Shown here: piece after piece, positions 2,765 through 8,757 of the stretch | How positions within the stretch are numbered: position 1 is the first letter of the stretch | Layout: each line of letters starts with the position of its first letter | Assembly (NCBI RefSeq): GCF_024223415.1 | Contig: NZ_CP100500.1 | Source of the DNA: Escherichia coli | Lineage (GTDB): Bacteria; Pseudomonadota; Gammaproteobacteria; Enterobacterales; Enterobacteriaceae | Direction: 5' to 3' (one strand) | Length of the DNA: 64,000 nucleotides | Made by a program: the position numbers and the translations under genes | The notes under the pieces: generated by a model | Database searches by the model: none | What the model saw: the letters and a program-made list of their open reading frames with translations, nothing else | Told to the model about the DNA's origin: nothing

Positions 2765-3373
2765 TCAACTGTGAGCGGCATCAACCGATGTACGGTATGC
2801 CATAAGCACGTACTGATCCATCAGATTTGTCAGTGGTTCACTCTGACCCTGACGTGCAATGATCCATTGCTCCAGATCTTTTTCTGATTTGTGTTTCAGG
2901 TTTTTCGTCCAGTCGTCAAGGCTGTTTCCGGTCATTAAGTCAAGCCAGCAGAGCCAGACCAGTTTGAGACGTAACTCCGTGCCGCCAAACTGACGGAAGA
3001 GGCTGATCAGTTTGTTTGCCAGAGAATGTTGCTTCAGGCGCTCACATTCAGACAGCAGGATCCCTTCCAGCATCGGATGATGAACCAGCAGGTGTTCGCT
3101 GGTGCATAAATTCACCACCAGATCATCATCCAGGGACGGGGAGCTCCGTTTGTCCGGACCATAAATCAGCCGGTGCAGACTCTGGGGAACGATGGCAATC
3201 TCCGGTTTTTCGCCATTGAATGACACCCACCCGGGCGTCAGATTATGGAAATAGTAGATATTCGGATGACACACGCCCCATGATACGGCGTGCCGGGTGA
3301 AGCCGGTCAGCCATTTCTGGTAGTTTTCATGGAGCAGCTCGTAACGGGTCTGATACTGTTGTTTCATTTTCAT
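2765..3373 (-). CDS. hypothetical protein, island-associated, co-transcribed downstream of the alpA-like gene
   Basis: 205-aa ORF; likely start at an ATG a few codons inside the listed GTG start, with a GAGGA ribosome-binding site upstream; no family recognised. Confidence 0.5.
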   Translation of the reverse strand: MKMKQQYQTRYELLHENYQKWLTGFTRHAVSWGVCHPNIYYFHNLTPGWVSFNGEKPEIAIVPQSLHRLIYGPDKRSSPSLDDDLVVNLCTSEHLLVHHPMLEGILLSECERLKQHSLANKLISLFRQFGGTELRLKLVWLCWLDLMTGNSLDDWTKNLKHKSEKDLEQWIIARQGQSEPLTNLMDQYVLMAYRTSVDAAHS

Positions 3374-3460
3374 ATTCCTCACGGGGGATAACAGGCAGCA
3401 GAGCGCCGCCGGCAGGCCGGAGATTGCGTCTGCTGTGGGCGAAGGGTTAGTGGTTAAAAA

Positions 3461-3667
3461 TTACGGACGGGACTGTGCAATACGCGCCTGCAGCCAGGCT
3501 TCCACTTCACTTTTCAGCCAGCGGGAGCTGCGCCCCATTTTGATGGGCGCAGGAAAGCCCCCATCTTTGATGAGTTTGTCAAACCACTTATCGGTTAGGC
3601 CGGTCAGTTGAGTGATAAACGCCATGTCGACCATCTGGTCATCCATCAGCGAAACTGGGGTAGCCAT
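3461..3667 (-). CDS. AlpA-family phage regulatory protein (excisionase-like DNA-binding protein), about 68 aa
   Basis: MATPVSLMDDQMVDMAFITQLTGLTDKWFDKLIKDGGFPAPIKMGRSSRWLKSEVEAWL - typical AlpA/MerR-like HTH; start placed at the internal Met. Confidence 0.8.
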   Translation of the reverse strand: MATPVSLMDDQMVDMAFITQLTGLTDKWFDKLIKDGGFPAPIKMGRSSRWLKSEVEAWLQARIAQSRP

Positions 3668-4792
3668 GAGAATGTTCCTCCGGATGTTGTTAAACCAGCC
3701 GGTGTGGTCATGAAAACAGCGCGCCACCTTCACCGGCATAACAACCGGGGAGAAACGTAAAAAATAATCGGGAATGTGGCTGTCCGGAGATAAACGGGGG
3801 GATTGCGATGGCAGAGCCGTAGCGGAATCCCGGAGGGGGGTGTTGCAAAAGATGCTTCCGCACGCACGCGCGATAAAGAGGGGATAGTTTTCGTGAGGAC
3901 AGGGAGAGAAGCAGGCGTTCTGATAATTGCAGAGTTGTTTTCGGAGGTGGTTACAGTGAGTCAGCCCGTTCCTGGCGAGCAGGAGACTGATATCACCGAT
4001 GGGATAAGGTTGTCTGATTGGTATTATAAATATAAGAAGTCATCAGAGAGTAACGTAAAGGATTTGCCAGAATAACCTAAGAGAGTAAATCTCTCCGGTA
4101 ACAGAGCGCTATGAAGCATTCTGTATCAGAGTGCAGATACATGAACGCTGATGCGTAAAATCAGCAGTGACACGCCAGCTCCCCCTATGCCCATTCCTGT
4201 ATAAGACATGAACTGAGTGTATTAATGCTTCTGCCCTGAGACTGAGCCGGTGAGTGAGGGGCTGAGAAATCCCTCTTGACACAGCTCTAACCAGAAATAC
4301 TTCCCCGGTTGTTGCGGTGCGTCCGGATCCCCGATAACGGAACACTAAGGCTGTATTGCGGGACACCGGGTAAGTAGCAGCCCGTAAGGCGTTCTGTCAA
4401 CGCCAGAAAAAATGATTTCCCACACGCGTTATAGACTCACTCCTGTGGACCTGGAAGCCCGTAACTCTGCGGTTGCCCACTGACTGACGGAACTGACCGC
4501 AAATTTTACGAGTGCGTGCTGGGCTTCAGTCTGGTCACCTGAGCGTTCGGTAACGGAGGCGCGGGCGGTAATAGGCTGATTTTCAGGTATTACCGGCTTA
4601 CAGCGTGTGGTTGATATTGAGGGGCTGTGAGTTTCGCGTATTTGTCAGAAACCCAGACGAGTTTTCCTGTATGGGACGAAATAAGGCAGCGGCAATACCT
4701 GGAAAAATTTAATATGGTATGAAGGAGAACCTGTCGGTTACGCTTAATATACCCGGTACACTGTCAGCTCAGGGGATACATGAACCGTTATC

Positions 4793-4993
4793 TCACCAGC
4801 TACACAGTATATACACACTGACGCTGACAGTAGTCAGCAGGACCACAATAATCAGTGCCAGCAGTATGGTAACGATACGGTCTGTATTCCGGTAATAGCC
4901 GAAGGGGTCGACAGAACCACAATACGGGCAACACACTGTATTATGAGTAATCGCGTTTCCACAGTCCCTGCACTTCTTTTTGCGTATCACCAT
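4793..4993 (-). CDS. small zinc-ribbon protein with C-terminal transmembrane helix (about 66 aa), function unknown
   Basis: CRDCG...CCPYCG double CxxC followed by a hydrophobic stretch ILLALIIVVLLTTVSVSVYIL; GGAGGG ribosome-binding site 5 nt upstream of the ATG. Confidence 0.5.
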   Translation of the reverse strand: MVIRKKKCRDCGNAITHNTVCCPYCGSVDPFGYYRNTDRIVTILLALIIVVLLTTVSVSVYILCSW

Positions 4994-5156
4994 CACTCCC
5001 TCCTCACAGCCTTACCCGTAACCGGTTTTTTACATTAAAAAAACAACGCTGAAAATTCAACCGTCAGTCCGGAGACGACCGTTCGGGTTATCACAGAGTG
5101 CCTGAGACAGTGTCCTGCCGGAGGTCACTTCAGGGACTCTGCGCATTTTTTACGAC

Positions 5157-5762
5157 GTGGCTATTCCGTATGAACCATACGGAGATTTAACCATGACCTA
5201 CAAATACAACCCCTTCTGGCAGCAACGTATTCGTGAGACGGTGCGGCACGCACTGAATGTTCATCCCCGCCTGACGGCATTGCGGGTTGACCTGCGTTTC
5301 CCGGATGTACCGGCAGCAACGGACGCAGCTGTGATATCCCGCTTCATCAATGCCCTGAAAGCCCGAATCGACGCTTACCAGAAACGTAAGCATCGGGAAG
5401 GTAAACGCGTGCATCCCACCACCCTGCATTACGTCTGGGCCCGGGAGTTTGGGGAGTGCAAAGGTAAAAAACACTATCACCTGATGCTGCTGGTTAACCG
5501 GGATACCTGGTGTCGTGCCGGTGATTACCGTGCTCCGGGATCACTGGCCGGGATGATTAAACAGGCGTGGTGCAGTGCCCTGGGAGTGGATGTCGGGTGC
5601 CATGCCACGCTGGTGCATTTTCCGGCCTGGCCGGCGGTGTGGCTGGAACGCGATGATGACACTGGCTTTCAGCAGGTGCTGGAACGTGCTGACTATCTGG
5701 CGAAGGAACATACCAAAGCTCACTGCACCGGTGAGCGCAATTTTGGCTGTAGCCGGAGTTGA
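5157..5762 (+). CDS. HUH-type rolling-circle Rep-like protein (inovirus Gp2 / YagK-YfjJ-like family)
   Basis: 201-aa ORF with the motif KKHYHLMLLV (His-hydrophobic-His) and candidate Tyr motifs; family assignment from memory, not searched. Confidence 0.55.
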   Translation: MAIPYEPYGDLTMTYKYNPFWQQRIRETVRHALNVHPRLTALRVDLRFPDVPAATDAAVISRFINALKARIDAYQKRKHREGKRVHPTTLHYVWAREFGECKGKKHYHLMLLVNRDTWCRAGDYRAPGSLAGMIKQAWCSALGVDVGCHATLVHFPAWPAVWLERDDDTGFQQVLERADYLAKEHTKAHCTGERNFGCSRS

Positions 5763-6015
5763 GCACGACTGGCGCGCCAATATCCGGCAAACCAAAAGTA
5801 TGGGTTGTTGTCTGGCGGCAACGATGTATCCACTCGCCCACTGACTGTTTTTTACGTCAGTGTTCCATTGTGTGACAACCACAGTGCTGTAACAGCAACC
5901 AGCCTGCTTTACCCAAACTCCAGTCCAGATTTTAACTGAACCGCCATTCACACCCTGACCACGCTGCCCGTACCGGGACGGCTGTTGCCTGCGTGTCGTC
6001 TGGCGGCTGAGGAAT

Positions 6016-6423
6016 ATGACTATGTACGCAAAATCCTTTATCGCTCTTGATGGCAACGGACGTCTGACGGGCGCCCGTACTGCACAGGCCGCACCTTATG
6101 CTAACTACACCTGCCACTTGTGTGGCAGTGCACTCAGATACCATCCGCAATACGACACTGAACTTCCCTGGTTTGAACACACTGACGACAGGCTGACAGA
6201 GCACGGTCAACAGTGCCCTTATGTCAGGCCGGAGCGCAGAGAAATACAGTTGATTAAACGTCTGCAGCAATTCGTACCGGATGCCTTACCCGTGGTGCGT
6301 AAAGCCAGCTGGCACTGCAGACAATGTCACCACGATTATTATGGGGAGCGGTACTGCACACACTGCCAGACCGGAGGATTCAGTATTCCCCGGACAACTC
6401 AGGAGGAAATATGCGAATTCTGA
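6016..6423 (+). CDS. Cys-rich hypothetical protein A (putative double zinc-ribbon)
   Basis: 135-aa ORF; conserved pattern CxxC...PWFEH...C...CxxC...DYxGExxCxxC shared with the next ORF. Confidence 0.55.
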   Translation: MTMYAKSFIALDGNGRLTGARTAQAAPYANYTCHLCGSALRYHPQYDTELPWFEHTDDRLTEHGQQCPYVRPERREIQLIKRLQQFVPDALPVVRKASWHCRQCHHDYYGERYCTHCQTGGFSIPRTTQEEICEF

Positions 6424-6821
6424 ACTGTTATATGGCGAATGACAGCAAAGGCCATTTTGTTACGGCGAAAGAAGCAGCGAAGCACAACCGCCAGGACGTT
6501 TTGTGCTGTGTGTCCTGTGGATGCCCGTTAACACTTCAGCGGGGCAATGACGGACAACCACCGTGGTTTGAACATGACCAGATGACTGTCGCTGAGAAAA
6601 TCCTGCTGCGATGCACCTGGCTTGACCCGGCAGAGAAAGAGGCCCGTCGTTTGCATCTGCAGGGTATGACGGTTCCGGATTATACGGTGAAGGTGAGAAA
6701 GTGGTTTTGTGTGATGTGTGACGAAGATTATGAAGGAGAAAAGTGCTGCCCGCGTTGTGGTACCGGGGTATACAGCAGGGAGGGGGGGCTGCAGGAAGGC
6801 AACTGGAAGGATAGGAACTGA
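6411..6821 (+). CDS. Cys-rich hypothetical protein B, paralogue of A, translationally coupled
   Basis: ATG at 6411 lies just upstream of the stop of the previous ORF (6421-6423); same Cys/PWFEH pattern. Confidence 0.55.
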   Translation: MRILNCYMANDSKGHFVTAKEAAKHNRQDVLCCVSCGCPLTLQRGNDGQPPWFEHDQMTVAEKILLRCTWLDPAEKEARRLHLQGMTVPDYTVKVRKWFCVMCDEDYEGEKCCPRCGTGVYSREGGLQEGNWKDRN

Positions 6822-7024
6822 GCGGTTCAGTCGCGGAAATCAGTTGCAGAGCTGTAATGATATCTCCGGGAGTGCTGCGTTGGTAGGGGCATCCCGGGAT
6901 AGAGAAATTTTAGCACTTTGCCCTGAATGATTGTAGACGTTCCGAGTACTCGTACCGGTCTGAGTTATTACAGTTAGATATTCACTTTTTCTCCCGCATA
7001 CTTCACATCTGTCAACGACGGATG

Positions 7025-8757
7025 AAAAGTGGTTCTTCCGCAACCTGGGTGGAAGAAAATGGATGAAACTTTCTGGCGAACAAGGATCTAAGCTGTTTTA
7101 AGTTATGGGCAACGCAATGCACTCTCTTAAGACACTTCTACAGTTACCTTGCGGATGGCGATGCAGTCGACAAATTATTAGCTCTGACGGTATAACCCTC
7201 CATCTCCACGGAAAACGCAAAACAGCACAATGTCCTGAATGCTTTAAGCGTAGCGACTCTGTTCATAGTTGTCGTCGGCGCCGGATACAGCATCTACCCT
7301 GCTCAGGGCAGACGCTATGGCTTGTATTTTCCGTCCGCCACTGGTACTGCCGTAACCCGGCTTGTTCACGTAAAATTTTTGCCGAGTCGCTTGCTCCCTT
7401 CGCCGGTTCACACCAGCAGTCTTCACAGGCGTTACAAAATTTACAACGTCAACTGGGATTAATAGCTGGAGGTGAGGCTGGAAAACGGGCTGCAACGGCA
7501 GCGGGTCTCCGTTGCAGTGCTGATACTCTTCTTCGCAGGGTATCAATACCCCGGAGACGAAACAGTCAGGCGCGCCTCATGTCGGTATTGATGAGTGGGC
7601 GTGGCATCGGGGCCACTGCTGCGGTATGTTAATAGTCAATCTTGATACTCACCGTCCCCTCGTCCTGCTTCCCGGCCGTGATCAGCGTACGCTGGCGACC
7701 TGGTTCAGAAAATATCCGGAAATACAGGTTGTCTCGCGTGATCGCAGTGGAGTCTATGCGACAGCAGCACGTGAAGGTGCACCTCAGGCCAGACAGGTGG
7801 CCGATCGATGGCACCTGCTAAAAAATATTGGTGATGAGCCTGAACGAATGATGTACAGACATATGCCTCTGATACGTCTTGTTGTCAGAGAGTTATCACT
7901 GAAGAAATCACCTGAGCCAGAAATATCTGTGCCTGTAGCATCGCTCCGTCGTCTGGAACGCCTTAAACAGCACATCCGCAAAAAACGGCATCAGCGTTGG
8001 ACAGAGGTTATGGCCCTGCATAACAAGGGATGTAGTTTCAGGGAAATATCCCGTATTACAGGCCTGTCGCGAGTGACAGTCAGTCGCTGGGTGGGTTCAG
8101 GAACATTCCCTGAAATGTCAACTAGGCCTCCAAAGCGAGGGCTTCTGGACCCATGGAGGGAGTGGTTAAAAGAGCAACGAGAATGTGGTAATTATAACTC
8201 CGGCCGGATATGGCGGGAAATGGTGGCCAGGGGGGTTACAGGCAGTGAAACCATCGTCAGGGATGCTGTTGCCAAATGGCGTAAAGGCTGGATCCCACCG
8301 GTTACTACTGCCGCAAGACTTCCTTCAGTGTCCCGGGTAAGCCGCTGGTTGATGCCCTGGAGAATAATCAGGGGTGAAGAAAATTATGCTTTCCGATTTA
8401 TTAGTCTGATGTGTGAAAAAGAACCGGAGTTGAAAATAGCGCAGCAACTGGTACTCGAGTTCTACCGTATTCTGAAAACCTAAAATAAATCACAGCTAAG
8501 CAGCTGGTTCACTCGGGTCCACGAAAGCGGCTCAGCAGAACTTCGGTGCGTAGCTGCGGGGATGGAAGCTGATGCTGCGGCTATATGTGAGGCAATCAGC
8601 AGTCGCTGGAGTACTGGTGTTGTCGAAGGTCATGTAAATCGCCTGAAGGTGCTGATACGCCAGATGTATGGTCGAGCCGGACTTGAACTACTTAGGCGGA
8701 GGGTAATGAGTCCACTGGCATGAAAATCTTCACCCAGGTTGCGGAAGAGCCACTTTT
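7025..8757 (+). mobile_element. ISL3-family insertion sequence with imperfect terminal inverted repeats, decayed
   Basis: Left end aaaagtggttcttccgcaacctgggtg at about 7025-7051 and its near-perfect reverse complement at about 8731-8757; encloses an ISL3-type transposase. Confidence 0.7.
7105..8722 (+). pseudogene. ISL3-family transposase, disrupted by a frameshift near 7588 and an in-frame TAA at 8481-8483
   Basis: N-terminal zinc-finger region (CPECF...), ...IDEWAWHRGHCCGMLIVNLDTHRPL readable only after a frame change, then ...VVEGHVNRLKVLIRQMYGRAGLELLRRRV continues in frame after the stop. Confidence 0.75.

Follow-up and report, generated by a model that had tools for sequence, protein, structure and literature searches.

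The window analysed here, a stretch of 64,000 nucleotides of the Escherichia coli contig NZ_CP100500.1, contains on its minus strand an open reading frame of 66 codons (4993..4793), with the ATG at 4993-4991 and the stop codon TGA at 4795-4793. Its translation is MVIRKKKCRDCGNAITHNTVCCPYCGSVDPFGYYRNTDRIVTILLALIIVVLLTTVSVSVYILCSW. The protein is identical to RefSeq WP_001297900.1, annotated as "hypothetical protein" by the NCBI pipeline (PGAP), which also calls this CDS on identical DNA. The same sequence is present in UniProt as A0A024L0K2 ("Uncharacterized protein") and bears the IMG name "predicted nucleic acid-binding Zn ribbon protein". The gene is therefore already annotated in RefSeq, but without a name or a family assignment, and a literature search by accession, peptide, neighbour and domain names found nothing on it. 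A size of 66 residues alone is unremarkable, as 86 ORFs of 40 aa or more lie wholly or partly within the first 12 kb of the window. What sets this ORF apart from chance is not its length but its conservation, its synteny and its dN/dS. It is a real protein-coding gene, uncharacterised and conserved in E. coli islands.

A Shine-Dalgarno (SD) sequence, AGGAGG (4999..5004, minus strand), is located 5 nt before the ATG. The preliminary description of this DNA had reported the hexamer GGAGGG 5 nt upstream of the start codon as a strong ribosome-binding site. The strength of the site is not in question, but the spacing has to be corrected: GGAGGG (5003-4998) stands 4 nt before the ATG, and the distance of 5 nt is that of AGGAGG. 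An in-frame GTG at 4996 would give an alternative product of 67 aa, but it lies too near the SD. The SD-like purine run was present in all eight island variants, even in those starting at the GTG second codon. In one allele class (L004, L011 and L012) the ATG is replaced by ATC, and the adjacent GTG can act as start; gene callers still give the ATC position as the start of the gene in this class.

Codons 1-39 (4877..4993, minus strand) encode a basic N-terminus (RKKK), a putative C4 zinc ribbon (C8, C11, C22 and C25) and a juxtamembrane segment, DPFGYYRNTDR, as delimited by the allele alignments and by the beta-hairpin of the AlphaFold2 model. The two CxxC pairs were found in the translation as C8-R-D-C11 and C22-P-Y-C25, with an additional cysteine at position 21. 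Codons 40-66 (4796..4876, minus strand) encode a single C-terminal transmembrane (TM) helix, which occurs in three allele classes, all of them hydrophobic. The highest 19-residue Kyte-Doolittle window covers residues 40-58 (mean 2.99), and the AlphaFold2 model (mean pLDDT 80.7) has strands at residues 5-7 and 14-16 followed by a helix at residues 33-65. Both CxxC pairs and the single C-terminal helix had been proposed in the preliminary description and are borne out by these data. The two CxxC knuckles on a predicted beta-hairpin point to a zinc-ribbon fold, and metal binding is predicted accordingly for this fold. C8xxC11 and C22xxC25 are invariant or nearly so among intact alleles, and a zinc ligand is lost in some alleles (CCPGY in L005, C11S in P0048, C25R in P0001).

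By prediction, the protein has the layout of a tail-anchored membrane protein, i.e., a single TM segment at the extreme C-terminus and a cytoplasmic N-terminal domain. Across the alleles, the hydrophobic window falls at residues 40-58 or 46-64 and is followed by 1-8 residues. In six of seven alleles, residues 1-39 have a net charge of +2 to +6, and the C-terminal tail is uncharged; the head is thus predicted to be cytoplasmic by the positive-inside rule. WP_001297900.1 and its alleles, the island ZnR-TM family, share the pattern MVIRKKKC..C...HNTVCCP.CG..DPFGYYRNTDR followed by a TM helix, and their gene diverges from a 189-aa YagK/YfjJ gene. The protein of the window has all of these features.

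Island module and distribution

The small gene lies between an alpA-like gene and a Rep-like operon, as previously described. The former is an AlpA-family helix-turn-helix gene (3461-3667, minus strand; Pfam Phage_AlpA). The latter starts with a gene encoding a Rep-like YagK/YfjJ protein of 189 aa ("inovirus Gp2 family"; 5193..5762, plus strand; PF11726, E 9e-48; PF23343, weak), whose dN/dS is about 0.2-0.3. Further downstream on the plus strand, two overlapping genes (6016-6423 and 6411-6821) each encode a DUF7828 and a Zn_ribbon_11 domain; no significant similarity was detected between the head of the small protein and these Zn_ribbon_11 proteins. On the other side, the remnant of an Hha/YmoA-family gene (about 4400..4553, plus strand) converges on the small gene. 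In the window this hha-like gene is broken by a stop codon and a frameshift, and in the homologous stretch of L001 and L002 (about 97% identical) it is a PGAP pseudogene, while it is intact (49-74 aa) in L004-L006, L009, L011 and L013.

Eight distinct loci, including a Salmonella contig, were compared, with 57-100% identity of the small protein. All eight have the order alpA-like gene, hha-like gene (plus strand), small gene (minus strand) and 189-aa YagK/YfjJ gene (plus strand), and the two DUF7828/Zn_ribbon_11 genes come after YagK/YfjJ in most of them. Conservation in related islands had been put forward as a test of the gene, and the gene is kept in every related island examined. The block lies within the Ag43/YeeP-GTPase type of island. 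Within the multi-copy integrative islands of the CP4-44/Ag43 type in E. coli, the small gene is an accessory gene, divergent from the YagK/YfjJ Rep-like operon. The YagK/YfjJ proteins of the window and of L004 are 97.9% identical, and the small genes of these two loci fall into different allele classes; YagK/YfjJ and the small gene therefore do not co-evolve. The function of the conserved block (hha-like gene, small gene, YagK/YfjJ and the two DUF7828/Zn_ribbon_11 genes) would help to explain how such "cryptic" elements persist and move.

Other features of these islands were also recorded. Directly downstream of alpA, a protein of about 190-200 aa without Pfam match (2765-3367, minus strand) is encoded in all related islands. 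The island of the window is rich in insertion sequences, which include IS66 remnants (1588-2333) and a disrupted ISL3 transposase gene (7105-8483). In the Nissle 1917 and SK1144 copies, an inserted ISEc20 element (IS110 family; L001 6693-8141) separates alpA from the small gene; the corresponding site of the window (3838/3839) is without insertion.

Of 5,426 complete E. coli genomes, 3,374 contain the 401-bp stretch around the small gene. With a more sensitive search for the small-gene region, this number rose to 3,494 genomes and 6,429 places, nearly all chromosomal, with a median of 2 copies of the small-gene DNA per genome (range 1-6). Roughly two thirds of sequenced E. coli thus carry the gene, often in several copies; Nissle 1917 and many pathogens are among them. 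At least 1,000 contigs encode the exact protein, and each of the other two classes is represented by intact alleles on several hundred to 1,000 contigs. An exhaustive HMMER search of 1.84 billion representative sequences returned no more than 50 proteins with E<=1e-3, most of which are variants from E. coli. Contig scans of species-representative genomes with the small protein and YagK/YfjJ gave only two tiny contaminant-like contigs, and the hha-like/small-gene/YagK/YfjJ module is essentially absent from species representatives. In a phage collection, only a 20-aa fragment at the end of a record was detected, and no phage of that collection carries the gene. The island-type protein matched only 8 records of a plasmid collection, several of them chromosome-sized. 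A tblastn search of the K-12 elements CP4-57 and CP4-6, with CP4-44 and KpLE2 outside the search, detected no homologue, and thus no K-12 gene name or data apply.

Putative regulatory DNA shared with YagK/YfjJ

The small gene and YagK/YfjJ share a divergent intergenic region of 199 bp (4994..5192), which is 89-99% identical among variants in the alignment. This identity is tighter than that of the synonymous sites of either gene. The promoter scan gave no consensus promoter for the small gene. A candidate sigma-70 promoter, TTGAAT, 17 nt, TAATGT (5032..5060, minus strand), matches the consensus at 7 of 12 positions, below the scan threshold; it is present in six of seven variants, with base changes in two. 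On the plus strand, a promoter-like site that passed the scan (TTTACA, 16 nt, GAAAAT; 5029-5056) overlaps this candidate around an AT-rich palindrome. The palindrome, TTTTTTA-CAT-TAAAAAA (5026-5042), is retained among the variants, with single-base changes in a few, and may be an operator. No intrinsic terminator was found after the small gene. In the 5' untranslated region, a predicted hairpin covers the start codon of the small gene (z -2.5 for 97 nt; z -0.85 for the whole transcript). Expression of the small gene is thus plausible.

A perfect hairpin, CCGTATG-AAC-CATACGG (5166-5184), is located directly 5' of the YagK/YfjJ start codon, and its 3' arm overlaps the GGAG SD sequence of this gene. 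The stem is kept in all eight variants, two of them with a 5-nt insertion in the loop. This would be in line with a control of the Rep-like gene at the level of translation, as the hairpin suggests.

A further promoter-like site, antisense to the small gene (4824-4852), was rejected as a chance occurrence: it arises from two ATT codons (ATT ATT) specific to the window and is missing in the other alleles.

Allele classes and selection

Seven alleles of the small gene entered the codon-aligned comparison. In codons 2-39, dN/dS ranges from 0.06 to 0.29 and dS reaches values above 1. Fisher tests on four allele pairs gave p values of 6e-4 to 1e-7 for this N-terminal half, in which the variable columns are concentrated at the third codon position (11, 14 and 26 at positions 1, 2 and 3, respectively). 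In the C-terminal 25-27 codons, dN/dS ranges from 0.4 to more than 1. The TM half falls into three allele classes (IVTILLALIIVVLL..., IFTALLALLVVVLL... and LLCLLTLLLVLILV...). Its Kyte-Doolittle hydropathy is 2.8-3.0 in all seven alleles, its least variable codon position is the second, and every allele keeps an open frame with a stop codon 0-4 residues past the helix. The head and the juxtamembrane DPFG-YYRNTDR segment bear most of the purifying selection, and the helix is constrained only to hydrophobicity. This suggests that the cytoplasmic head carries a specific function and that the helix is an anchor.

The same comparison bears on an alternative explanation, in which the ORF is non-functional and persists because its 5' half shares its DNA with conserved regulatory or origin-like elements of the YagK/YfjJ operon. 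Such an explanation would account for an intergenic region more conserved than the synonymous sites of the small gene. However, in the N-terminal half it is precisely the synonymous sites that have strongly diverged while the amino acids are kept, and in the diverged 3' half the frame is always open and always encodes a hydrophobic helix followed directly by a stop codon. The pattern of synonymous and non-synonymous changes is unlike that of a constraint at the DNA level, and a non-coding ORF is therefore very unlikely.

Divergent island copies found by blastn align only from about codon 39 upstream, including the upstream region, which places a break of homology inside the gene, at the junction between ribbon and helix (codon 39-40). 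One may imagine from this break that the protein is a specificity factor of the exclusion or immunity type, with a constant head and exchangeable TM "cassettes", in three classes, that pick a membrane partner or a competing element. A dN/dS of 1.65-2.77 in the TM half between the allele of the window and class C goes in the same direction, although these values, calculated from about 23 synonymous sites, are to be treated as non-significant. Also, relatives of the protein, presented below, lie within conjugative transfer regions, one of them about 5.5 kb from an exclusion-determining gene. Nevertheless, recombination mosaicism explains the pattern without any selection for diversity, and a predicted periplasmic part of 0-4 residues offers little to recognise outside the membrane. 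We consider an exclusion factor improbable.

Relatives and possible function

No family of Pfam, NCBIfam or PADLOC matched the small protein at threshold. The best Pfam scores were 16.3 bits (cut-off 23.2) and 16.0 bits (cut-off 29), and the best NCBIfam score was 16.4 bits (cut-off 32). Zn_ribbon_3 (PF13248), DZR (PF12773), UPF0547 (PF10571) and zf-ChsH2 (PF12172) display the same two-knuckle CxxC...CxxC hairpin as the small protein, which scores 14-16 bits against them, compared with cut-offs of 23-29. Membership in these four families and in DUF2116 (PF09889) was rejected on the basis of scores under the gathering cut-offs. The only match in PADLOC-DB 2.0 was Cas12f, at E 0.25 and from a zinc-finger segment. 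Three phage protein groups (phrog_38187, phrog_10292 and phrog_14275) combine a ribbon with a following TM segment and match the N-terminal part of the small protein; unlike it, they are 136-178 aa long, carry a further C-terminal part and have no known function. Foldseek searches against the PDB and BFVD gave nothing at E<0.1. Marginal, non-significant matches of structure and of PDB sequences were to generic zinc ribbons, mostly nucleic-acid-binding ones such as those of RNA polymerase subunit P, reverse gyrase, Nop10 and L32/L40e.

The weak sequence matches also included proteins of 71-80 aa with the pattern C-x-DCG...C-xx-C-x-S-x-DPFG-xx-R-xx-DR followed by a TM segment, which are encoded on conjugative plasmids (e.g., P0115, P0095, P0127, P0101 and P0130). 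Alignment of the island and plasmid profiles with hhalign (98.3%, E 1.5e-14, 55 columns) confirms, at the level of profile similarity, that they are homologous to the island protein. They have the same CxxC-x10-CxxC head, the S-x-DPFG-xx-R-xx-DR segment and a single TM helix, they belong to mobile elements and, like the island gene, their genes are oriented against the neighbouring ones. They differ from the island protein by an identity of only about 36%, by 10-20 residues after the TM helix, and by their gene arrangement: at its 3' end, each gene meets and overlaps a convergent gene for a conserved protein of 126-148 aa, of which the island loci examined contain no homologue. They are likewise uncharacterised and mostly unannotated. 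One subtype was found on 120 PLSDB plasmids, 116 of which are conjugative, again mostly without annotation. These relatives are located on the anti-tra strand, for example between traN and trbC on IncF plasmids or in the nuc/TrbC region of an IncI-like element. Their neighbours differ from those of the island gene, and no context is common to the superfamily.

Among characterised proteins, the ZAS anti-sigma factors combine an N-terminal cytoplasmic zinc module (zf-HC2) with one TM segment and sequester their partner at the membrane. The small protein resembles them by its predicted cytoplasmic zinc module and single TM helix, but it lacks a periplasmic domain, and the H-x3-C-x2-C motif is out of register. 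An assignment to this group was discarded, as PF13490 was not among the Pfam matches and the module contains no sigma-factor gene.

The toxins of type I systems (Hok, Ldr, TisB, Ibs and others) are short, span the membrane with one TM helix and are encoded by stand-alone genes of mobile elements, and the small protein shares each of these traits. The preliminary description had considered it a plausible toxin or abortive-infection effector. On this view, the protein would damage or depolarise the inner membrane and would perhaps be silenced by H-NS/Hha or by an unrecognised antitoxin. Its size, single helix, near-perfect SD and location in a mobile island agree with this proposal, and a silencer gene of the hha family is conserved beside it. 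Databases also contain frameshifted or truncated alleles, and plasmid homologues stand alone on the anti-tra strand near addiction genes, e.g., a PIN/Phd pair in L022. However, intact alleles are far more numerous than the rare broken ones and are maintained in as many as 6 copies per genome. No PADLOC match at threshold and no adjacent antitoxin-like ORF were found. As for an antitoxin RNA, an Rfam search of positions 3000-7000 with E values up to 1 gave no match, and the sole antisense promoter-like site, at 4824-4852, is specific to the allele of the window. Selection acts most strongly on the soluble head and least on the helix, which is the opposite of what is expected of a pore-forming or peptide toxin: in contrast to type I toxins, the protein has a structured and selected soluble domain of 39 residues, and its TM segment is its least conserved part. 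The toxin proposal thus gains no support from the analysis, and we regard it as unlikely.

The interpretation that we tentatively prefer, at somewhat less than an even chance, is that the small protein serves the mobile element as a tail-anchored adaptor or regulator with a zinc ribbon. Residues 1-39 would form a basic C4 zinc-ribbon head, predicted to be cytoplasmic, and residues 40-62 would form one membrane helix with almost no periplasmic tail. The conserved head and the DPFG-YYRNTDR segment would bind a partner at the inner membrane, which could be a nucleic acid or a protein encoded by the element, and the helix would mainly serve as an interchangeable anchor rather than as a pore. The protein is most suitably classed as a new family, as yet unnamed, of the known "zinc ribbon plus TM" kind, and as an ordinary uncharacterised accessory protein rather than a demonstrated toxin or defence gene.

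This adaptor interpretation can be extended to the plasmid relatives, although we find the extension doubtful and rather unlikely as a whole. The island gene and the plasmid relatives would then constitute a superfamily of tail-anchored zinc-ribbon proteins of mobile elements, which would tether the DNA, the RNA or a transfer or replication protein of the element, or would take part in allele-specific exclusion or killing. Their TM segment would set specificity, and the TYW3-like protein whose gene overlaps the 3' end of the plasmid genes would be the partner. In any case, the plasmid relatives constitute a second system, experimentally easier, in which the function could be studied. The transfer region in which they lie also contains artA (L021 1434-1769), a gene of the anti-tra strand of the F plasmid whose product is now named "toxin ArtA" by NCBI.
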